From: Escherichia phage vB_EcoM_LNA4 | Sequence record: MZ311864.1 | DNA: 64,000 nucleotides | Reading direction: 5' to 3' (one strand) | Part shown: positions 16,826-23,797 of the stretch, piece after piece | Layout of the letters: the number at the start of each line of letters is the position of its first letter | How positions within the stretch are numbered: position 1 is the stretch's first letter | The notes under the pieces: generated by a model | Seen by the model: the letters and a program-made list of their open reading frames with translations, nothing else | Told to the model about the DNA's origin: nothing | The model's database searches: none | Program-made: the position numbers and the translations under genes

Positions 16826-17005
16826 ATGGACCAGTGTATTGCTTTCTCAGAGAGGGATTGGCCCCATGAAAACCTTCGTGGAATGTATCACCACAGGGCT
16901 TGCAAGCAGTGCGGTAAAGAGTACATAGGTCCTAAAAGAGCGACGTTTTGTTTTATTTGCGAAAATAATGAAAAAGACGTTGACAAAGAAACCGACAGTG
17001 CGTAA
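16826..17005 (+). CDS. small Cys-rich hypothetical protein
   Basis: 59-aa ORF with two CxxC pairs; found by hand. Confidence 0.3.
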   Translation: MDQCIAFSERDWPHENLRGMYHHRACKQCGKEYIGPKRATFCFICENNEKDVDKETDSA

Positions 17006-17028
17006 TATTCACCTCACCAAGACGAGAT

Positions 17029-17105
17029 GGTTCTGTAGCTTAGCTGGTTAGAGCGCTTCCCTCATAAGGAAGAGGTCGCAGGTTCAATCCCTGCCAGAAC
17101 TACCA
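17029..17105 (+). tRNA. tRNA-Met/Ile2 (anticodon CAT)
   Basis: 7-bp acceptor stem, anticodon loop CTCATAA, T-loop GGTTCAATCC, encoded CCA. Confidence 0.6.
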
Positions 17106-17119
17106 AACGAGGAGAGACC

Positions 17120-17287
17120 ATGAATAAGATTTATGATTTTTTCGGAATTGGTAAACCCAAGAGCATGTCTTCAAACTGGGACTCCAGAATGGACTCATCT
17201 GTAGGGAATAGTAATTCTGTGTACGACCGTTATGATGTTTCACTCGGTCTTCATAAAGAAACGAAAAAAGATTCAAAAAACGATTGA
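17120..17287 (+). CDS. small hypothetical protein
   Basis: 55-aa ORF with GAGGAGAG Shine-Dalgarno, directly after the first tRNA. Confidence 0.4.
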   Translation: MNKIYDFFGIGKPKSMSSNWDSRMDSSVGNSNSVYDRYDVSLGLHKETKKDSKND

Positions 17288-17312
17288 CAAAGGAAGTACG
17301 AGATATTAGTAT
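17284..17312 (+). promoter_or_regulatory. sigma70-like promoter TTGACA-N17-TAGTAT
   Basis: -35 at 17284-17289, -10 at 17307-17312; upstream of the ORF at 17357. Confidence 0.5.
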
Positions 17313-17356
17313 TACCAACGTCAACAAGACATTAGCAAATAGAGGAGAAATACAAC

Positions 17357-17686
17357 ATGGCTAAGAAAAACGCAACTAAGAAAGTTTCTGCAATCGACGC
17401 AATCAAACAGCCTTTCCAGTTTGAGTCGAAGTCAACGCAGACTCACTCTGCACCACACGATGTTCGTCTGGGCGGTGTAACCAAGACCGTTTCCGTTCGT
17501 AAAAAGCGTCGTGATGAAGACGGCAACGTTGTATTCATCTGGGAATCCGTTTCCCGCGTTGAAGGTGGTCAGGTAATTTCTGCCTCACACCGTGTTCGCA
17601 CTGGCAAGACCAAGCGTGAACGCGCTGGTAAAGCCAAAGACGCTAAGGTTGTTGAAGCCGTAGCGCCGAAAGGTAAGAAGAAGTAA
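17357..17686 (+). CDS. basic Lys/Arg-rich hypothetical protein
   Basis: 109-aa ORF with AGAGGAG Shine-Dalgarno and highly basic termini. Confidence 0.5.
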   Translation: MAKKNATKKVSAIDAIKQPFQFESKSTQTHSAPHDVRLGGVTKTVSVRKKRRDEDGNVVFIWESVSRVEGGQVISASHRVRTGKTKRERAGKAKDAKVVEAVAPKGKKK

Positions 17687-17894
17687 TAAAGCTTTACTGA
17701 ACTGATGGTTTGTGTTGAAATGGCGCTGTCGAAAATTGTCGGCAGGGTCATAGTAAACAGTCGCCCCAGTTCGGTAATTAATTCCTCCGGCATGGGGATA
17801 GACGAAGCTGGCTGCGGCGATGCGTCTTAAAATAAAGGGCTGCGGCAACCGTGACGATTCCGTGCAACGTCTTGAAAAACACGGACCTGATTTC

Positions 17895-17970
17895 GGGGTA
17901 TTAACTCAGCGGTTAGAGTAGCGGCCACTTAAGCCGAAGGTCGAAGGTTCGAATCCTTCATGCCCCACCA
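17895..17970 (+). tRNA. tRNA (anticodon loop CACTTAA; candidate Lys-CTT with A33)
   Basis: Clean acceptor, D and T arms (GGTTCGAATCC) and CCA; position 33 is A rather than U. Confidence 0.45.
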
Positions 17971-18084
17971 TTTTTTGGAATGAGAGAGATACGGGTTCGA
18001 CTCCCGTTCTTGCTGGCCCGGCTCGCGTAATGGCGCAGGGCGATAGCTTAAATGGACGAAAGTGCTCTTGTTTCAAAAAACTTC

Positions 18085-18113
18085 TTGACAATGAAATTTT
18101 TAAAGTGTAGTAT
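18085..18113 (+). promoter_or_regulatory. sigma70-like promoter TTGACA-N17-TAGTAT
   Basis: -35 at 18085-18090, -10 at 18108-18113; upstream of the ORF at 18145. Confidence 0.5.
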
Positions 18114-18144
18114 CACAACTCAATTTTACGCAAAGGAGAACTTA

Positions 18145-18756
18145 ATGTCTGATTCTAAAACTGTAATTTCTGTAACTGAACGCGCTACCAAAGCTGTTGC
18201 AACTGCTGCAACTGGCCTGAGTAAGGTTGTTGCTGAACTGCAATCTCTGGCTGAAGGCTCTGAACGTATCAGTCAAGAAATTCAGTTCAAACAGCAAGAG
18301 CTTGGCAATATCGAAGTCCAGTTCAATGAAAAACTGGCTGAAGAAAAATCTAAGCTGAAGATCAAAGTTCTTGAAAATGAAGACGGTGTACTGAACACCC
18401 TTCTGAAGGCTCGTGGCCTTGTAGCTATCGAACCGGGTGTTGTAGATGGTCTGCGTCACGAACTGGCTGTCGCTCAGTCTGGCAATGAAGATGCGATCAA
18501 TACAGCAGTTGATGCTGCAAAACGTTCTGCTGCTATCGAACTGAACGCTGTTAAGTCCAATCTGGAATCAGCACACAAAGTTGCGATTGCTGAACTGAAC
18601 GCCAATACCAAGGCAGACAAAGATCGTATCGCAATGCTGACCGAACAGCTTGAAGCTGCCCGTGCAGACCTGAAAGCAGAACGCGAAACCCGTCTGGAAA
18701 TCGCTAAAGCTGATGCGAACCGCCAGGGTGTTGTAGTTAACACTGGTAAAAACTAA
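18145..18756 (+). CDS. coiled-coil hypothetical protein
   Basis: Track ORF trimmed to ATG 18145 with AAAGGAG Shine-Dalgarno; Ala/Glu/Lys-rich heptad-like sequence. Confidence 0.5.
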   Translation: MSDSKTVISVTERATKAVATAATGLSKVVAELQSLAEGSERISQEIQFKQQELGNIEVQFNEKLAEEKSKLKIKVLENEDGVLNTLLKARGLVAIEPGVVDGLRHELAVAQSGNEDAINTAVDAAKRSAAIELNAVKSNLESAHKVAIAELNANTKADKDRIAMLTEQLEAARADLKAERETRLEIAKADANRQGVVVNTGKN

Positions 18757-18765
18757 TACCGCCGT

Positions 18766-18783
18766 GCCGACACGGATGTCGGC
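18766..18783 (+). terminator. GC hairpin (terminator-like, no T-run)
   Basis: GCCGACA-CGGA-TGTCGGC immediately after the stop at 18756. Confidence 0.3.
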
Positions 18784-18833
18784 AAACATTTGAAGTACAT
18801 TTAAAATTTAAAGTTCATTGAGAGGAGAATTAT

Positions 18834-19481
18834 ATGTCTACTAAGATTTCTGTAACCCGCGCTCTGGCAACTCTGACCAAGATCGAGGGCAAGATCGAAA
18901 AGCGTATCGACCAGTTGAACACTGTTCAGATCGCAAAAGGGACGGAAGATCACCGTTCGATCCCAGGTTCTCTGGTTAGCATTGCTGACTTCGAGACTTC
19001 TGCTAAGGCAGACTTCCAAGGCCTGAAAGACCTGCTGGCAGTACGTGATGAACTGAAGGCGAAAGTTGTTCAGTCCAACGCAGTAACTCTGGTCACCGTT
19101 GGTGGTAAAGAGATGACAGTTGCTCAGGCAATTGAAGGCAAGCGCACAGTTGCTTACAAAGAACTGCTCCTGTCCAAGCTGAAAGCGCAGTACAACTTCG
19201 CTCAGAAGCGCCTTGATAAAGAAGTCGCTGACTTCGAAACCAAGCTGGAACAGGCCCGTGCTCCGTACATCAGTCGTGACAAAGCGCCTGATCCAGAGCA
19301 GATTAAGACGGTAGAAGGTCCGACCCGTCTGATGAGCACACCGTCTATCGTTGACCCGCTGGGTCTGGCAGACGTAATCCGAAATCTGGAGACAGAGATC
19401 GAAGACTTCAAATCCAACGTTGACTTTGTGTTGTCCGAGTCTAACGCACGGACTGAAGTGGAGATTGAGGGATCAATCTAA
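18834..19481 (+). CDS. hypothetical protein
   Basis: 215-aa ORF with GAGAGGAG Shine-Dalgarno. Confidence 0.5.
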   Translation: MSTKISVTRALATLTKIEGKIEKRIDQLNTVQIAKGTEDHRSIPGSLVSIADFETSAKADFQGLKDLLAVRDELKAKVVQSNAVTLVTVGGKEMTVAQAIEGKRTVAYKELLLSKLKAQYNFAQKRLDKEVADFETKLEQARAPYISRDKAPDPEQIKTVEGPTRLMSTPSIVDPLGLADVIRNLETEIEDFKSNVDFVLSESNARTEVEIEGSI

Positions 19482-19489
19482 AATAACTT

Positions 19490-19521
19490 GAGGAATTATG
19501 AAAAACATCTTGTAATTCCTC
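19490..19521 (+). terminator. hairpin GAGGAATTA/TAATTCCTC (terminator-like)
   Basis: 9-bp inverted repeat with a 14-nt loop, 9 nt after the stop at 19481. Confidence 0.3.
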
Positions 19522-19697
19522 TCGTTAACTGATAAAGTTTCAAAATGCTGTTTTTTGGTTAGCGAAGTTGGAAACATCTTGCCTCTACCGAGGCCGGAGG
19601 TTAAACTGCCTCGAACTTAATCATAAGGATGATACTTAACGTATGTTTCCGCAGACCACAACTCTGCCGAAAATATCGAATCGCGAATTCGAAAGAC

Positions 19698-19739
19698 TTC
19701 AAAGTTCAACATTCAAAGATTAAAGTTCAAAGCTTAATG
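19698..19739 (+). repeat. three tandem 14-bp units, each starting TTCAAAG
   Basis: TTCAAAG at 19698, 19712 and 19726 (14-bp period) within a 340-bp ORF-free region. Confidence 0.4.
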
Positions 19740-19868
19740 TTTAAACTTGAAACTTCTAAACCACAAAGCTAAAATTTCGTTGATTATTAAAATCCTGGGT
19801 CAAAGGTCCTTAGCTCACAAGATATGGCTAACCACACCTCCGGGCAGTTAATCGGAAACAGCATTCTT

Positions 19869-19943
19869 GCTCCTAAAGCATAAGTGGCGATGCAGCGGCC
19901 TTGTAAGCCGAGGAAGTGGGTTCGATTCCTACTGGGAGCACCA
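19869..19943 (+). tRNA. tRNA-Thr (TGT)
   Basis: Acceptor GCTCCTA/TGGGAGC, anticodon loop CTTGTAA, T-loop GGGTTCGATTCC, CCA encoded. Confidence 0.6.
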
Positions 19944-19949
19944 AACAAT

Positions 19950-20023
19950 TCGTTGATAGCCTTAGCGGTAAAGGCCCCCTCTGCGCAAGGGGTTCAGTGG
20001 TTCGAATCCACTTCAGCGAGCCA
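19950..20023 (+). tRNA. tRNA-like element, non-canonical (anticodon-position GCG, C37, 3-nt variable loop); possible pseudo-tRNA
   Basis: Good acceptor stem, T-arm AGTGGTTCGAATCCACT and CCA, but the anticodon loop CTGCGCA and D/variable regions are atypical. Confidence 0.3.
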
Positions 20024-20025
20024 AT

Positions 20026-20134
20026 GCAGGGTAGGCGGTTTGTCAACCGCGAGGTCCATCCAGACCTGAAAATAGCTCTCGGCTTGGAGTGGAGAGTGAA
20101 TACATAGGTGGTTAGATTCCACCACCCTGCTCCA
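20026..20134 (+). tRNA. tRNA-like element with a 38-nt insertion between anticodon arm and T-arm
   Basis: 7-bp acceptor GCAGGGT/ACCCTGC, D-stem GCGG/CCGC, anticodon arm AGGTC-CATCCAG-GACCT, T-arm GGTGG-TTAGATT-CCACC and CCA; far too long for a standard tRNA. Confidence 0.25.
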
Positions 20135-20325
20135 AAACATATTTTAAAGTGCATTAGCTCAGATTATTTGATTCACGGACTGATCATCTGTGAGGAGAAT
20201 GAGCCTAACTGAATGGAGTTTCAACGACAAAGGCCACGTTGTTGTAACAGAAGTTCTAAGGTCGTAGAGCGCTGTTCGCGGAGAACAGAGGTCGGTGGAG
20301 TCACCATGCAGCTTAAAATATGTTT

Positions 20326-20403
20326 GCGCTCTTGGTCCAATCTGGTAGAGGCATGGGTGTTAAGCTCCCAGGGTTCCCGGTTCGAGTCCGGGAGGGCGCA
20401 CCA
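20326..20403 (+). tRNA. tRNA with anticodon TAA (Leu-type) in a short-variable-arm scaffold
   Basis: Acceptor GCGCTCT/AGGGCGC, T-arm CCCGG-TTCGAGT-CCGGG, CCA; anticodon stem has a closing mismatch, loop GTTAAGC. Confidence 0.4.
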
Positions 20404-20406
20404 GAA

Positions 20407-20481
20407 CGGGGTATAGTCTAGAGGATAGGCAGGAGTCTTCTAAACTCCTTTACGTAGGTTCGAATCCTACTACCTCGACCA
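20407..20481 (+). tRNA. tRNA-Arg (TCT)
   Basis: Canonical cloverleaf; anticodon loop CTTCTAA; T-loop GGTTCGAATCC; CCA. Confidence 0.65.
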
Positions 20482-20486
20482 CTTAT

Positions 20487-20560
20487 GCGCGGTTGCTGGA
20501 GTGGCAACAGCTTCGGCTGCAAACCGAATGTCAGGTGTTCGATTCACCTACCGTGCTCCA
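20487..20560 (+). tRNA. tRNA-Cys (GCA)
   Basis: Anticodon arm TTCGG-CTGCAAA-CCGAA; T-arm AGGTG-TTCGATT-CACCT; CCA. Confidence 0.6.
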
Positions 20561-20599
20561 AGTTGTTGATATTTTTTGCTATAAATGATAAAATAACCC

Positions 20600-20628
20600 T
20601 TGACAGAGATATTGAACTCTGATAACAT
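20600..20628 (+). promoter_or_regulatory. sigma70-like promoter TTGACA-N17-TAACAT
   Basis: -35 at 20600-20605, -10 at 20623-20628; upstream of the ORF at 20647. Confidence 0.45.
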
Positions 20629-20646
20629 GAATAAGTGGGGTTAATT

Positions 20647-21012
20647 ATGGCAACAAAACAAGCACTTACCAAGCGTCGTAGAGGTAAGGGTCGTCCTTTA
20701 AAAGAGGAGTCTAACGCAATTCAGCTTGAGAAGAACATTCTTGATCTGAAAACAAAGATGATTGCTATGATCCCTGATGCACATATGGTCCTTCGTGATC
20801 TTATGATGAACAAGGATACTAAAGACAACATCCGTGAGAATATTGCTCGTTTCGTTATTGAGGAAGGTAAGCAAATGCTTTCTGATTACTTCGATGAAGA
20901 GAACGAAAATGAAGAAGAAACAAAGAACGTCGATGATGGTTCCGGAAAGGGCGCTGATAAACCAGTAGCAAAACCTTTCTCAACTGACATCGTACAGTTC
21001 AAACAAGGTTAA
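20647..21012 (+). CDS. hypothetical protein with basic N-terminus
   Basis: Track ORF trimmed to ATG 20647; TKRRRGKGRP basic segment, acidic C-terminal half. Confidence 0.45.
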   Translation: MATKQALTKRRRGKGRPLKEESNAIQLEKNILDLKTKMIAMIPDAHMVLRDLMMNKDTKDNIRENIARFVIEEGKQMLSDYFDEENENEEETKNVDDGSGKGADKPVAKPFSTDIVQFKQG

Positions 21013-21014
21013 TT

Positions 21015-21102
21015 GGGGCGGTTCCCGGAGCGGCAAACGGGCGGGATTGTAAATCCCTTGGCATCGCGTCCTTCGTAGGTTCGAGTCCTACTCGCCCCAC
21101 CA
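21015..21102 (+). tRNA. tRNA-Tyr (GTA), long variable arm
   Basis: Acceptor GGGGCGG/TCGCCCC, anticodon loop TTGTAAA, 17-nt variable arm, T-arm GTAGG-TTCGAGT-CCTAC, CCA. Confidence 0.55.
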
Positions 21103-21108
21103 ATTAAC

Positions 21109-21183
21109 GGGAGTATAGCTCAGTGGTAGAGCAAACGGTCGATAACCGTTAGGTCGCTGGTTCAAGCCCAGCTACTCCCACCA
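21109..21183 (+). tRNA. tRNA-Ile (GAT) with C33
   Basis: Canonical arms (GCTCAGTGGTAGAGC D-arm); anticodon loop TCGATAA has C at position 33. Confidence 0.5.
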
Positions 21184-21189
21184 ATTTAA

Positions 21190-21263
21190 GCGGTTAAGCA
21201 CAAGGTGTGTCGCAGGCCTTCCAAGCCTCGCAGAGTAGGGTTCGATTCCCTCTAACCGCTCCA
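21190..21263 (+). tRNA. tRNA-Gly (TCC)
   Basis: Acceptor GCGGTTA/TAACCGC; anticodon loop CTTCCAA; short D-arm; CCA. Confidence 0.55.
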
Positions 21264-21270
21264 AATAAAT

Positions 21271-21346
21271 GCTCCTATCGGCTAAACGGTCAGGCCGCCA
21301 GACTTTCAATCTGGAAATCCGAGTTCGATTCTCGGTGGGAGTGCCA
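21271..21346 (+). tRNA. tRNA-Glu (TTC)
   Basis: Anticodon arm CCAGA-CTTTCAA-TCTGG; T-arm CCGAG-TTCGATT-CTCGG; CCA. Confidence 0.6.
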
Positions 21347-21353
21347 AATTTGT

Positions 21354-21430
21354 AGGGACTTAGCACAATTGGCTAGTGCAGCGGATTCCAAATCCGCAGG
21401 TTCTGGGTTCGAATCCCAGGGTCCCTGCCA
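21354..21430 (+). tRNA. tRNA-Trp (CCA)
   Basis: Anticodon arm GCGGA-TTCCAAA-TCCGC; T-arm CTGGG-TTCGAAT-CCCAG; CCA. Confidence 0.6.
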
Positions 21431-21435
21431 GTTTT

Positions 21436-21511
21436 AGGAGGATGGTGTAATTGGTTAGCACACGGGGCTTTGATCTCCGGAGTTAGGGTTCGAGTCCTTA
21501 TCTTCCTGCCA
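21436..21511 (+). tRNA. tRNA-Gln (TTG)
   Basis: Anticodon loop CTTTGAT; T-arm TAGGG-TTCGAGT-CCTTA; CCA. Confidence 0.55.
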
Positions 21512-21625
21512 AGTTTGAGTGTTTTTATTTGAAAGCACTCATGCGTGGCCTAAGCATTTATCAGATGATGTTCAACCTGTGACGTTGAGGAAGTGGGAGC
21601 GATACCCACAGGTCACCCCAATTTT

Positions 21626-21718
21626 GGTGGAATGGTCGAGCGGTTTAAGACAGCACCTTGGAAAGGTGTCGGCCCCTTCAAACGGGGTCCGTAGGTTCGA
21701 ATCCTACTTCCACCGCCA
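21626..21718 (+). tRNA. tRNA-Ser (GGA), long variable arm
   Basis: Acceptor GGTGGAA/TTCCACC, anticodon loop TTGGAAA, ~21-nt variable arm, T-loop GGTTCGAATCC, CCA. Confidence 0.6.
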
Positions 21719-21732
21719 CTTTAGGAGATATT

Positions 21733-21888
21733 ATGCAGAAACTTTTGCGTTGTAAAAAGGTATTTGGACGCTGTAAGATTCACGGTAGTAACTGTGGTGT
21801 TGCAGATGAAATTCAATCAATCCCTATTACTCGTGCGAAAGAAAAAGCAGATCTTCGTAAAGAAATTAAAGAACAATTGGAAGATTAA
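21733..21888 (+). CDS. small Cys-rich hypothetical protein
   Basis: 51-aa ORF (track ORF trimmed to ATG 21733, AGGAG Shine-Dalgarno); its last codons overlap the 5' end of the next tRNA. Confidence 0.35.
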   Translation: MQKLLRCKKVFGRCKIHGSNCGVADEIQSIPITRAKEKADLRKEIKEQLED

Positions 21889-21969
21889 CCCTAACGGTAA
21901 GGGATCTCTTTGCTAAAGAGACAGTAGCCCCTGAAAAGGGGTGTGTCAGTTCAAGTCTGACATCTTCCT
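21879..21969 (+). tRNA. tRNA-Ser (GCT), long variable arm, CCA not fully encoded
   Basis: Acceptor GGAAGAT/ATCTTCC, anticodon arm TCTCT-TTGCTAA-AGAGA, variable arm with CCCC/GGGG stem, T-arm GTCAG-TTCAAGT-CTGAC. Confidence 0.5.
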
Positions 21970-21971
21970 CC

Positions 21972-22060
21972 GGAGAGCAGGCTGCATGGTGCAGACTCCG
22001 GTTTGAACCCGGTCCCATCGTAGCGATACGGTGACAGTTCGATTCTGTTGCTCTCCTCCA
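21972..22060 (+). tRNA. tRNA-Ser (TGA), long variable arm
   Basis: Acceptor GGAGAGC/GCTCTCC, anticodon loop TTTGAAC, long variable arm, T-loop AGTTCGATTCT, CCA. Confidence 0.5.
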
Positions 22061-22065
22061 AATAT

Positions 22066-22152
22066 GGGTTGGTAGCCAAGCGGCGACGTATGTCTAAGGC
22101 ACTCGACTTTTAATCGAGGGATCGTTGGGTTCGAATCCCACCCGACCCACCA
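22066..22152 (+). tRNA. tRNA-Lys (TTT) with expanded D region
   Basis: Acceptor GGGTTGG/CCGACCC, canonical anticodon arm CTCGA-CTTTTAA-TCGAG, T-loop GGGTTCGAATCCC, CCA; about 10 extra nt in the D region. Confidence 0.45.
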
Positions 22153-22157
22153 TACAA

Positions 22158-22260
22158 CGGGACGATAGTTTAATGAGGCTGGAAATGCGACGGCAACCAG
22201 CGGAGCAGAATGACGGGCATCCAGGACCGTAGGTGAGGTGCAAACCCTCAGATCCCGCCA
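22158..22260 (+). ncRNA. structured tRNA-like element (unclassified)
   Basis: 5' CGGGA pairs with 3' TCCCG followed by CCA; internal hairpins including TGAGG-TGCAAAC-CCTCA; not foldable into a standard cloverleaf by hand. Confidence 0.2.
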
Positions 22261-22321
22261 AATTGAAATAAGTTAAAATAATCCTTGCAAAAGATTGTTT
22301 TCACTGATAAAGTAATTACAT

Positions 22322-22410
22322 GGTTCTTTGACCGAGAGGCCGATGGTAGCAGGCTGTTAACCTGCCTGGAGTAATCCACGACGAAGGTTCGAATCCTTCA
22401 GGAACCGCCA
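22322..22410 (+). tRNA. type-II (Tyr-like scaffold) tRNA with anticodon GTT and discriminator G73 (candidate Asn decoder)
   Basis: Acceptor GGTTCTT/AGGAACC, Tyr-like D region CCGAGAGGCCGATGGTA, anticodon arm GCAGG-CTGTTAA-CCTGC, 17-nt variable arm, T-loop GGTTCGAATCC, G73-CCA. Confidence 0.45.
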
Positions 22411-22453
22411 AATTAGGTGATACGCTACCTTAAGTGCGAACTTGAAAATTAAT

Positions 22454-22530
22454 GGGGCCGTGGCTGACAAGGTAATGGTGCCGCACTGTCTATGCGGAAA
22501 ATGAGGGTTCGATCCCCTTCGGTCTCGCCA
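22454..22530 (+). tRNA. tRNA-Asp (GTC)
   Basis: Acceptor GGGGCCG/CGGTCTC (with G-U pairs), anticodon arm CCGCA-CTGTCTA-TGCGG, T-loop GGGTTCGATCCCC, CCA. Confidence 0.5.
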
Positions 22531-22713
22531 ATTTGATATGTTGATGTAAATTGCCGGAAGGCACTCAAAATGAGTTCGACATATCAAACCAAATACGCTC
22601 TTGCAGGAAAGGTTAGCCTCCCTGCAATGTCACACTAGGTGATCAGAGCGGATCAAATTAGCTAGCCAGCGATACCAGTTGCAGTGTCTGGGACAATTAA
22701 AATTCTGCACCTT

Positions 22714-22791
22714 CGGAGCGTAGCGCAGTCTGGTCAGCGTGGGAGCCTTGGATGCTCTGGGTCGCAGGTTCGAATCCTGCCGCTCCGACCA
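22714..22791 (+). tRNA. tRNA-Pro (TGG)
   Basis: Acceptor CGGAGCG/CGCTCCG, anticodon loop CTTGGAT, T-loop GGTTCGAATCC, CCA. Confidence 0.6.
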
Positions 22792-22796
22792 ATTTA

Positions 22797-22872
22797 GCAG
22801 GTATAGTTCAACTGGACAGAGCATCAGTTTACGAAGCTGAGAATCGGGGTTCGAATCCCTGTATCTGCACCA
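22797..22872 (+). tRNA. tRNA-Arg (ACG)
   Basis: Acceptor GCAGGTA/TATCTGC, anticodon arm TCAGT-TTACGAA-GCTGA, T-loop GGGGTTCGAATCCCT, CCA. Confidence 0.6.
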
Positions 22873-22907
22873 AATTAAGGCTTGGATTTCTTCGGACCCA
22901 AGCGCAC

Positions 22908-22984
22908 GGGCGATTGATGGAATTGGTATACGTGTCGGATTTAGATTCCGAATTTTGGGGGTTCGAGTCCCCTGTCGCCCACCA
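22908..22984 (+). tRNA. tRNA with anticodon TAG (Leu-type) in a short-variable-arm scaffold
   Basis: Acceptor GGGCGAT/GTCGCCC, anticodon arm TCGGA-TTTAGAT-TCCGA, 5-nt variable loop, T-loop GGGGGTTCGAGTCCCCT, A73-CCA. Confidence 0.5.
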
Positions 22985-22991
22985 ATCCTTC

Positions 22992-23067
22992 GGGACTGTA
23001 GCTCAGTTGGTAGAGCACCTGATTGAAGATCAGGGTGTCGGTGGTTCGAATCCACTCGGTCCCGCCA
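22992..23067 (+). tRNA. tRNA-Phe (GAA)
   Basis: Textbook cloverleaf: D-arm GCTCAGTTGGTAGAGC, anticodon arm CCTGA-TTGAAGA-TCAGG, T-loop GGTTCGAATCC, CCA. Confidence 0.7.
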
Positions 23068-23073
23068 AATAAT

Positions 23074-23146
23074 TGCGAGCTAGAATTCTGGTGAATTCAC
23101 GAGTCTCATAAGCTTGTTCAGAGGGGTTCGATTCCGCTGCTCGCAA
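23074..23146 (+). tRNA. tRNA-Met/Ile2 (CAT), CCA not encoded
   Basis: Acceptor TGCGAGC/GCTCGCA, D-arm GAAT/ATTC, anticodon loop CTCATAA, T-loop GGGGTTCGATTCC. Confidence 0.5.
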
Positions 23147-23163
23147 CTAACAGAGGACTTAAT

Positions 23164-23767: not shown

Positions 23768-23797
23768 CGCCCCGCTCTTGCGGGGCTTTTCTTTTTC
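23768..23797 (+). terminator. rho-independent terminator
   Basis: CCCCGC-TCTT-GCGGGG hairpin followed by CTTTTCTTTTTC. Confidence 0.6.

Follow-up and report, generated by a model that had tools for sequence, protein, structure and literature searches.

A conserved Vequintavirinae tRNA gene region in Escherichia phage vB_EcoM_LNA4 and its re-shaped tRNAs

Escherichia phage vB_EcoM_LNA4 carries, within the 64,000-nucleotide (nt) stretch of DNA analysed here (sequence record MZ311864.1; hereafter the window), 23 tRNA genes and three tRNA-like relics on a single strand. With a probability of roughly 0.85, this array is read as the conserved tRNA region of the Vequintavirinae, which would serve as the phage's own decoding set and sustain its translation. 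The reading draws on the identity of the genes, their conservation in relatives, covariation, an enrichment of promoter-like sites and a partial match to codon usage. Mature tRNAs from the array would give the phage a near-complete decoding set, covering 16–18 amino acids, and such a set would sustain phage translation whenever the host's own tRNAs suit the phage poorly or are being destroyed. As its similarity to relatives indicates, the window is that of a Seunavirus-like (Vequintavirinae) lytic myophage. The array is a known, family-typical feature, because the records of relatives annotate it and the rV5 paper, citing the PVP-SE1 genome paper, treats the tRNAs of rV5 in terms of codon usage (PMC3606486); it is not a new kind of element.

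Gene content, conservation and turnover

tRNA genes were called with ARAGORN on the whole 64 kb, with Rfam at the gathering threshold and in a relaxed scan, and with ARAGORN in pseudogene mode. ARAGORN identified 22 tRNA genes, all on the plus strand and all within positions 17029–23147 (6.1 kb), and no other tRNA genes in the rest of the window. Rfam at the gathering threshold gave 20 tRNA matches in the same interval (33.7–71 bits; E = 3e-3 to 1.6e-13), among them a gene at 22066–22149 (50.5 bits) that ARAGORN had missed and that corresponds to tRNA-Lys(UUU). The relaxed scan added 23074–23146 (37.6 bits), together with weak matches to the tRNA-Sec model at 21972–22056, 21189–21260 and 20025–20131, and pseudogene mode added a His(GUG)-like element. 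The total of 23 tRNA genes and three tRNA-like elements (20026–20134, 21190–21263 and 21545–21620; Table 1) agrees with the count, about 23 and three and all on the plus strand, that an earlier reading of the letters alone (the original prediction) had reached; ARAGORN, with 22 genes, and Rfam, with 20–21, each accepted most of its candidates.

The 23 genes carry 22 distinct anticodons, or 24 counting the Gly- and His-like elements, where at least 18 had been predicted. Sixteen amino acids are covered, or 18 with the same two elements, and Ala and Val are missing. Three genes are of the Arg type (GCG, UCU and ACG), which corrects an earlier count of two. As enterobacterial tRNA genes do, 21 of the 23 encode their 3′ CCA; tRNA-Ser(GCU) stops at CC, and the last CAU gene has ACUA at its end.

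The region matches 128 phage records, with identities of 96.5% at 91% coverage for Enterobacter phage EC152, 96.2% for Cronobacter phage GAP31 and 91.5% for Escherichia phage 4MG, all three members of the genus Seunavirus in the subfamily Vequintavirinae. When ARAGORN was applied to 11 Vequintavirinae relatives, the order of the array was found to be kept in all 11, with 14–26 tRNAs each, and the tRNAs are annotated in most of the records. This order runs Met, Lys(CUU), Thr, an irregular slot, Leu(UAA), Arg(UCU), Cys, Tyr, Ile and Gly, continues with Glu, Trp, Gln, three Ser genes, Lys(UUU) and Asn, and closes with Asp, Pro, Arg(ACG), (Ala), Leu(UAG), (Val), Phe and CAU. The arrays of PVP-SE1 (24 tRNAs), GAP31 (26), 4MG, EC152 and FENT2 are 88–96% identical to the window and share with it the gene order, the families of the interleaved open reading frames (ORFs) and the unusual tRNAs. 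They also lie in the same place, after a nicotinamide phosphoribosyltransferase (NAMPT) gene and small ORFs, and before a gene for a 474-amino-acid (aa) protein, the spanins and terminase. The array is, as predicted, larger than those of most phages, but its size is normal for this family and for bacteriophage T5.

Within this common order, individual genes differ between phages. GAP31 has Ala and Val tRNAs and a 70-nt pseudo-tRNA, none of which occurs in the window, and the window has other alleles of Asp, Gly and Phe than its relatives, the Gly gene differing from that of GAP31. It is further set apart from the family arrays by the degenerate His-like element, by A33 in tRNA-Lys(CUU) and by the lost CCA of the last tRNA. 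Position 33 of tRNA-Lys(CUU) is A in the window (ccActtaa) and T in 8/8 relatives; the difference is due either to a mutation that recently inactivated the gene or to an error in the sequence. In the last tRNA(CAU) the final letters are ...AACTA, where FENT2, KE22 and NINP13076 have AACCA, and its encoded CCA has thus been lost. Pairwise BLAST comparisons with relatives, the 96%-identical ones included, showed tRNA genes gained or lost as cassettes, with the breaks at tRNA boundaries, as would be expected where recombination is frequent and homing endonucleases reside. An endonuclease VII (EndoVII)/HNH-type ORF follows the last tRNA and precedes the terminator; GAP31, EC152 and FENT2 lack it at that place, the window alone having it among the four closest phages compared, and it probably encodes a homing endonuclease. 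It is proposed that the region evolves as single tRNA genes are gained, lost or replaced in the manner of cassettes, a process in which resident homing-type endonucleases probably help. By eye, the spacer at 20135–20325 before tRNA-Leu(UAA) appears to contain decayed tRNA fragments, e.g. GCATTAGCTCAGAT... and the T-arm-like GGTGGAGTCACC; no tool called any tRNA fragment in this spacer.

The small ORFs and sigma-70-like promoters predicted between the tRNAs were both recovered. Sigma-70-like sites, counted by consensus matches only, number 20 against 9.2±3.3 in shuffles, and those on the plus strand with 10/12 consensus matches begin at 16980, 17284, 18085, 19747, 20566 and 20600. The site at 16980 lies 20 nt ahead of the first tRNA. 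The site at 20600 corresponds in place to one that the PVP-SE1 record marks as a promoter upstream of gp081, the counterpart of the 122-aa ORF of the window, which that record notes as similar to rV5 gp070. The interleaved ORFs represent five conserved phage families (phrog_6110, 6662, 9325, 1491 and 3330). Their PHROGs annotation is 'unknown function' apart from one doubtful 'tail fiber' label, and Pfam gave nothing useful, its sole informative match being that of the EndoVII ORF. Many of the tRNAs are only 0–8 nt apart, and tRNA-Ser(GCU) abuts the next tRNA with no spacer, which implies polycistronic precursors. Several sigma-70-type promoters would probably transcribe the tight blocks in this form, transcription would be likely to end at the terminator downstream of the EndoVII ORF, and host RNase P and 3′ trimming enzymes would excise the tRNAs.

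The nearest well-studied analogue is the tRNA region of T5 (Demerecviridae), which has about 25 tRNA genes on one strand. Interleaved with these genes are promoters (named in the T5 record), small ORFs, HNH endonucleases (hegA, hegC and hegD in the part of the region covered) and 'tRNA-like stable RNAs with unknown functions'. Furthermore, the PVP-SE1 record notes T5.085, which lies in the T5 tRNA region, as similar to its own counterpart of the 215-aa ORF. T5 belongs to an unrelated phage family, however, and its Asn (78 nt), Lys-UUU (78 nt) and Leu-UAG (85 nt) tRNAs are standard-shaped, unlike those of the window.

Table 1. Features of the tRNA region and its surroundings in the window.
Feature	Position	Strand	Evidence or remark
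Sigma-70-like promoter TTGACA-17-TAATAT, directly 5′ of first tRNA	16980..17008	+	10/12 consensus matches
tRNA-Met(CAU), canonical, CCA encoded	17029..17105	+	ARAGORN, Rfam 71 bits; tRNAscan-SE: FENT2 orthologue Met
ORF, 55 aa, phrog_6110 (function unknown)	17120..17287	+	Kept as GAP31_187, PVP-SE1 gp087
ORF, 109 aa, basic, phrog_6662 (function unknown)	17357..17686	+	PHROGs
tRNA-Lys(CUU), A33 in place of universal U33	17895..17970	+	ARAGORN, Rfam 60.7 bits
ORF, 203 aa, phrog_9325 (function unknown)	18145..18756	+	PHROGs
ORF, 215 aa, phrog_1491 (label 'tail fiber protein', doubtful)	18834..19481	+	PHROGs
Sigma-70-like promoter 5′ of Thr block	19747..19775	+	Consensus match
tRNA-Thr(UGU)	19869..19943	+	ARAGORN, Rfam
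Irregular tRNA 'Arg(GCG)': C37, 3-nt variable loop, U1-A72, G73	19950..20023	+	ARAGORN only
109-nt tRNA-like RNA	20026..20134	+	Relaxed Rfam, folding
tRNA-Leu(UAA), class I shape, 5-nt variable loop, A73	20326..20403	+	ARAGORN, Rfam 40.8 bits
tRNA-Arg(UCU), reads AGA/AGG	20407..20481	+	ARAGORN, Rfam 56.9 bits
tRNA-Cys(GCA), U73	20487..20560	+	ARAGORN, Rfam
Sigma-70-like site	20566..20594	+	10/12 consensus matches
Sigma-70-like promoter TTGACA-17-TAACAT, with TG, 5′ of ORF 20644	20600..20628	+	10/12 consensus matches
ORF, 122 aa, phrog_3330	20644..21012	+	PHROGs
tRNA-Tyr(GUA), class II as normal in bacteria	21015..21102	+	ARAGORN, Rfam 33.7 bits
tRNA-Ile(GAU)	21109..21183	+	ARAGORN, Rfam 70.9 bits
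tRNA-Gly(UCC)-like: compact D arm, bulged anticodon stem, U73-CCA	21190..21263	+	tRNA-Sec model 29 bits, E 0.016
tRNA-Glu(UUC)	21271..21346	+	ARAGORN, Rfam
tRNA-Trp(CCA)	21354..21430	+	ARAGORN, Rfam
tRNA-Gln(UUG)	21436..21511	+	ARAGORN, Rfam
Degenerate tRNA-His(GUG)-like	21545..21620	+	ARAGORN pseudogene mode only
tRNA-Ser(GGA), class II, G73	21626..21718	+	ARAGORN, Rfam
ORF, 51 aa; end overlaps start of tRNA-Ser(GCU)	21734..21888	+	GAP31_192 counterpart by position and length
tRNA-Ser(GCU): 4-bp D stem, U73, only CC of CCA	21879..21971	+	ARAGORN, Rfam 47.7 bits
tRNA-Ser(UGA), 8-bp acceptor and 4-bp T stem, U73	21972..22060	+	ARAGORN; tRNA-Sec model 34 bits
tRNA-Lys(UUU), ~11-nt D-loop hairpin insertion	22066..22152	+	Rfam 50.5 bits
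tRNA-Asn(GUU), long variable arm, G73	22322..22410	+	ARAGORN, Rfam 51 bits
tRNA-Asp(GUC), U37-A38 allele in anticodon loop	22454..22530	+	ARAGORN, Rfam
tRNA-Pro(UGG)	22714..22791	+	ARAGORN, Rfam
tRNA-Arg(ACG)	22797..22872	+	ARAGORN, Rfam
tRNA-Leu(UAG), class I shape, Leu-type D loop GAAUUGGUAUA, A73	22908..22984	+	ARAGORN, Rfam 50.8 bits
tRNA-Phe(GAA), G73, G37	22992..23067	+	ARAGORN, Rfam 70.3 bits
Second tRNA(CAU): U1-A72, 6-bp anticodon stem, 3′ end ACUA	23074..23147	+	ARAGORN, relaxed Rfam 37.6 bits
Endonuclease VII/HNH-type ORF, 154 aa	23164..23628	+	PF02945, 2.6e-13
Intrinsic terminator-like hairpin, strong: 7 G-C pairs and T run	23769..23796	+	
Gad2-family nucleotidyltransferase gene (putative), 474 aa	23838..25262	+	Pfam labels of homologues, fold
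Nicotinamide phosphoribosyltransferase (NAMPT), 561 aa	14077..15762	+	~1.3 kb upstream of array

Re-shaped tRNAs and tRNA-like elements

The tRNA-Asn(GUU) gene is 89 nt long and has a variable-arm hairpin of 4 bp capped by GUAA. Covariation was assessed in six distinct sequences from Vequintavirinae and two jumbo phages. Across the five-arm cloverleaf, 98.7% of cells were paired and eight pairs were changed on both sides, which none of 500 shuffles matched; the 4-bp stem of the extra arm was 100% paired, with two of its four pairs changed on both sides. A second lineage of the gene (FENT2, PVP-SE1, pEp and KE22) combines a different body, GACGAG in FENT2 and PVP-SE1, with an extra hairpin whose variable stems are GAGC/GCUC and GAGU/ACUC, and EspYZU15 and KP12 have 75-nt versions. 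The main identity elements of E. coli asparaginyl-tRNA synthetase (AsnRS) are G34, U35, U36 and G73. Both GUU and G73 are present in the window gene, and the phage tRNA(GUU) appears more likely to be a true tRNA-Asn with an added arm. Nematode nev-tRNAs similarly place a long variable arm on an anticodon of a class I family; they are reported to decode an alternative genetic code for leucine, whereas the phage tRNA keeps the Asn identity elements (PMC3333845).

The tRNA-Leu genes depart from the standard shape in the opposite direction, both being only 77–78 nt long with a 5-nt variable loop. Class II versions of 85–87 nt occupy one or other Leu slot in FENT2, KP12, pEp, PVP-SE1 and NINP13076, and the Leu(UAG) D loop GAAUUGGUAUA is common to class II relatives in FENT2, KP12 and pEp. 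In E. coli, tRNA-Leu identity resides in A73 together with D-loop and tertiary features, and the variable arm is dispensable. The A73 of both short genes and the Leu-type D loop of Leu(UAG) suggest that these identity features have been retained.

The D-loop insertion of tRNA-Lys(UUU) is a hairpin of ~11 nt, GAC-GUAU-GUC, which is missing from an otherwise similar gene in NINP13076. ARAGORN in pseudogene mode read 22066–22152 as a tRNA-Glu(CUC) with a variable arm; this assignment was rejected because of the anticodon arm CUCGA-CUUUUAA-UCGAG, the insert-free NINP13076 orthologue and the FENT2 orthologue, which tRNAscan-SE calls Lys(TTT) with a score of 63.8.

The minimum-energy fold of tRNA-Ser(UGA) has an acceptor stem of 8 bp and a T stem of 4 bp. 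Position 8 pairs as A:U in the window, KE22 and pEp, covarying to G:C in Av-05 and PVP-SE1, and the alternative 7/5 fold contains an A×C mismatch in PVP-SE1. The gene also has a tRNA-Sec-like 5-bp D stem with compensatory changes, a 3-4-nt loop and a long variable arm, and its 34 bits against the tRNA-Sec model fall under the gathering score of 47. (8/4) tRNA-Ser have been reported in bacteriophages (Mukai et al. 2017, PMC5389517). With this (8/4) tRNA-Ser/allo-tRNA group the gene shares the 8-bp acceptor, 4-bp T stem, long D stem, variable arm and U73, but it differs from allo-tRNAs in having a normal Ser anticodon and an anticodon stem of 4–5 bp that is not extended.

The irregular slot that ARAGORN labels 'Arg(GCG)' has no Rfam match at the gathering or the relaxed threshold. 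Its anticodon loop has 6, 7 or 8 nt in relatives, and it may not decode. The neighbouring 109-nt RNA folds into a five-arm cloverleaf with a 7-bp acceptor, a 6-bp D stem with a tetraloop, a 6-nt 'anticodon' loop, a long variable arm, a T arm and U73-CCA; its fold has a z-score of -4.77, and 0/200 shuffles fold as well. In pEp_SNUABM_01, a 108-nt feature annotated 'tRNA-TERM suppressor' stands right after tRNA-Thr, a correspondence of position for which the sequences were not aligned. Taken together, the 109-nt RNA and the irregular slot probably do not decode, and both recall the 'tRNA-like stable RNAs' of T5. The His-like element lacks GG in its D loop and TTC in its T loop (AGCGATA), and has C at -1.

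Two further observations concern added arms in other phages. The tRNA-Trp(CCA) of Erwinia phage pEp_SNUABM_01 is 87 nt long with a variable-arm hairpin, and is thus another class I isoacceptor with an added arm in the subfamily. A contig in IMG/VR contains a Ser/Tyr-type D loop followed by CTGCCAA (anticodon GCC, Gly) and a long stretch before the T arm, and this sequence may represent a further case of a class I anticodon on a long-armed tRNA.

Pattern scans of IMG/VR and of cellular genomes returned at least 120 matches each, and the figures given here are shares among the matches listed. A short variable loop forced behind a Leu-type D loop in IMG/VR yielded 109 tRNAs, 74 of which were tRNA-Leu of 67–81 nt, nearly all of 74–79 nt with A73. 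Similarly, a long variable region forced behind CUGUUAA in IMG/VR yielded 104 tRNAs, 99 of them tRNA-Asn of 80–94 nt. The long viral tRNA-Asn comprised 94 distinct sequences, with G73 in 85 of the 94; most had Asn-like bodies, many starting with T, which is consistent with U1-A72. In viral loci picked by an unrelated motif, tRNA-Asn was long in 7/22 (32%), tRNA-Leu was short in 15/34 (44%), and Ser and Tyr were long in all cases. tRNAs of at least 80 nt also occurred in the scanned viral loci for Ile (17–20%), Met, Thr, Glu and Cys. In cellular genomes the same Asn pattern gave long tRNA-Asn in 17 of the 120 matches listed, and 10 of these 17 were in loci with 10–36 tRNAs (dense arrays). Long Asn and short Leu tRNAs thus characterise phage tRNA arrays generally and are not special to this one. 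In the window, the identity elements, GUU and G73 for Asn and A73 with the Leu-type D loop for Leu, are kept despite the re-shaping. No description of long-armed tRNA-Asn or short tRNA-Leu in phages was found in the literature searched, whose coverage is incomplete.

Codon usage, host defence and the role of the array

Codon usage was compared between 74 long ORFs of the window (18,222 codons) and 42 annotated E. coli K-12 genes (14,748 codons). The codons ACA (×3.4), AGA (×6.7), AGG (×4.6), GGA (×1.9), AAG (×1.8), CCA (×1.8), UCA (×1.8) and CUA (×1.5) are used more by the phage and have a reader in the array, the matching tRNAs including Thr-UGU, Arg-UCU, Lys-CUU, Gly-UCC, Pro-UGG and Ser-UGA. 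CUU (×3.2), CCU (×3.2), GCU (×1.9) and GUU (×1.65) are equally enriched and have no dedicated tRNA, and some half of the array's members (Trp, Met, Asp, Tyr, Glu, Gln, Asn and Phe) serve codons used alike by phage and host. Taken over all codons, the association is weak and not significant (Mann–Whitney p=0.09, with E. coli K-12 as a proxy host and ORFs chosen by length). It is proposed that the set would add to the tRNAs available for codons that end in A and for AGR codons, both used more by the phage, with its AT-richer DNA, than by its host.

Of the rare codons for which readers had been predicted, AGA and CUA proved to be enriched and matched, and AUA did not: its frequency is 2.2 per 1000 codons in the phage and 2.4 in E. 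coli. An AUA-reading tRNA-Ile2 among the two CAU tRNAs is likewise unsupported. The first-slot orthologue in FENT2 is Met according to tRNAscan-SE, and neither CAU tRNA of the window has acceptor or anticodon-stem sequence in common with the CAU tRNA of Av-05, which matches E. coli tRNA-Ile2 (ileX) almost exactly.

Codon-usage compensation, as originally suggested, is thus supported in part, clearly for ACA, AGA, AAG, GGA, CCA and UCA and weakly for the array as a whole. The authors of the rV5 paper made the same argument (PMC3606486), and AGG can be added to the enriched codons that favour it. Pure compensation for codons common in phage genes, especially late ones, and rare in the host, with the odd shapes put down to neutral drift, is nevertheless doubtful: the enriched codons left unserved, the tRNAs for codons without a phage–host difference and the non-significant association all speak against it, as do the Ala and Val tRNAs that come and go among 96%-identical phages. 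The tRNAs that lack a codon-bias rationale, such as Trp and Met, would be accounted for by independence from a collapsing host, in which host nucleic acids are shut off or degraded, host tRNAs decay during a long infection and the array replaces them. Such a 'host machinery degradation' model exists for tRNA-rich lytic phages, and both the near-complete set and a large lytic genome with nucleotide-metabolism genes, e.g. NAMPT, fit it. The absence here of Ala and Val tRNAs, present in close relatives, speaks against it, and it is an unlikely explanation of the array.

A mainly anti-defence role is a tentative possibility, with the odds somewhat against it. The array would then supply nuclease-insensitive substitutes or decoys (against PARIS AriB, PrrC, PtuAB, Schlafen or Cas12a3-type nucleases), and the arm changes would be part of the escape. 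PARIS AriB cuts the E. coli tRNAs for Lys(UUU), Thr(UGU) and Asn(GUU) at U36AAUC↓N41, a change of U39 abolished its cleavage of tRNA-Lys, and the T5 versions of these tRNAs rescue infection (PMC12409363); T5 tRNAs rescue infection from retron Eco7 as well as from PARIS (PMC12409363, PMC11555353). The window encodes every one of the AriB-targeted isoacceptors, plus the Tyr(GUA) relevant to retron Eco7. Relative to the AriB motif (PMC12409363), Thr (U36AAGCC) and Asn (U36AACCU) are altered at position 39, and Lys(UUU) (U36AAUCG) only at position 41, differences that are no more than suggestive of evasion. The rapid replacement of alleles slot by slot would also fit an arms race. For Lys(UUU), loop-level evasion is not evident, the gene keeping the full U36AAUC motif within an anticodon loop, CUUUUAA, that matches the one of E. 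coli tRNA-Lys. Viral contigs of very different kinds carry long Asn and short Leu tRNAs, which may reflect relaxed constraint instead of selection, and no nuclease is known to be blocked by a variable arm. Defence evasion by array tRNAs is plausible, in that the array would supply sequence- and shape-divergent replacements for host tRNAs cut by defence nucleases (Lys-UUU, Thr-UGU, Asn-GUU and Tyr), and any such role is read from the sequence. Deliberate mistranslation, by contrast, is very unlikely. Here tRNA(GUU) would be a Ser/Tyr-type body with an altered anticodon, and seryl-tRNA synthetase (SerRS), which ignores the anticodon, would therefore charge it with Ser and place Ser at Asn codons. 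Its D loop GAGAGGCCGA is indeed typical of phage tRNA-Ser(GCU/GGA) and tRNA-Tyr among the matches listed, the nearest E. coli tRNA is tRNA-Tyr (78% identity), beyond the family the phage genes closest to it are those for tRNA-Ser(GCU), and G73 is as in tRNA-Ser. GUU and G73 fit AsnRS, however, and the variable stem has only 4 bp, where tRNA-Tyr needed a longer one to become a SerRS substrate. The second lineage and most of the 94 long viral tRNA-Asn listed have Asn-like bodies with the extra hairpin, and with no other Asn tRNA in the array a proteome-wide Asn-to-Ser change would be costly. The mistranslating tRNA-Ser/Tyr was downgraded accordingly.

Several points weigh against the preferred reading, that of a conserved region providing the phage's own decoding set. 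Besides the weak codon association and the intact AriB motif of tRNA-Lys(UUU), Vequintavirinae have been reported to be sensitive to the tRNA-cutting retron Eco2 (PMC12916289). Several members may be decaying, namely Lys-CUU with its A33, the second CAU tRNA without CCA and the His-like and Gly-like elements. Furthermore, the expression, processing and charging of the array tRNAs in phage LNA4 are predictions from the DNA.

The putative Gad2-family neighbour and significance of the array

The 474-aa ORF that follows the array does so in all Vequintavirinae relatives, and the contig of a distant homologue (34% identity) has 20 tRNAs upstream of it. In two unrelated phage contigs, a homologue adjoins genes for RNA ligase and polynucleotide kinase-phosphatase (PNKP). 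All 47 of 47 homologues, one at 92% identity, carry the precomputed Pfam label PF26128 (Gad2), and a Pfam scan of the window protein itself gave no match. The family alignment contains invariant GG…DxD and DFTINM motifs. Sequence searches of the PDB with the 474-aa protein, as a single sequence and as a profile, gave no matches, and only fold searches worked: the AlphaFold model (mean predicted local distance difference test score, pLDDT, of 80) is predicted to combine a nucleotidyltransferase fold, of the CCA-adding-enzyme/poly(A)-polymerase kind, with the catalytic motif. Gad2 was described as a phage protein of ~400 aa with a predicted nucleotidyltransferase domain and verified anti-Gabija activity, for which no mechanism was yet known in the 2023 preprint (Yirmiya et al., bioRxiv 10.1101/2023.05.01.538930). 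This activity is known for Bacillus/Brevibacillus members of Gad2, to which the clade of the 474-aa protein is linked by the Pfam labels of its homologues only. The 474-aa gene is probably functionally linked to the array, and it is a reasonable hypothesis that the putative Gad2-family enzyme acts on RNA or on the tRNA 3′ end. That the shape changes are an adaptive escape from tRNA-targeting nucleases or a self-mark, with the adjoining Gad2-family enzyme repairing tRNA 3′ ends as part of the same module, is a more speculative and rather improbable idea, of which the literature searched, incomplete in coverage, gave no description.

Upstream of the array, the NAMPT gene is conserved in relatives. 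NAD+ salvage genes of this kind have been linked to countering NAD+-depleting defence.

The array is a further copy of a published and annotated feature, and the two functional hypotheses attached to it, codon-usage compensation and resistance to tRNA-targeting defence, are the current ones in the field. Its value rests instead on the side leads: the re-shaped tRNAs, the fast turnover and the Gad2 neighbour. The re-shaped tRNAs are natural test cases for the tolerance of tRNA shape by AsnRS, leucyl-tRNA synthetase (LeuRS), EF-Tu, the ribosome and defence nucleases, and the fast turnover of single cassettes among 96%-identical phages offers a handle on the selection that acts on each tRNA. Finally, a Gad2-family enzyme beside tRNA arrays and beside RNA ligase and PNKP genes suggests that this anti-defence protein may have an RNA or tRNA substrate.

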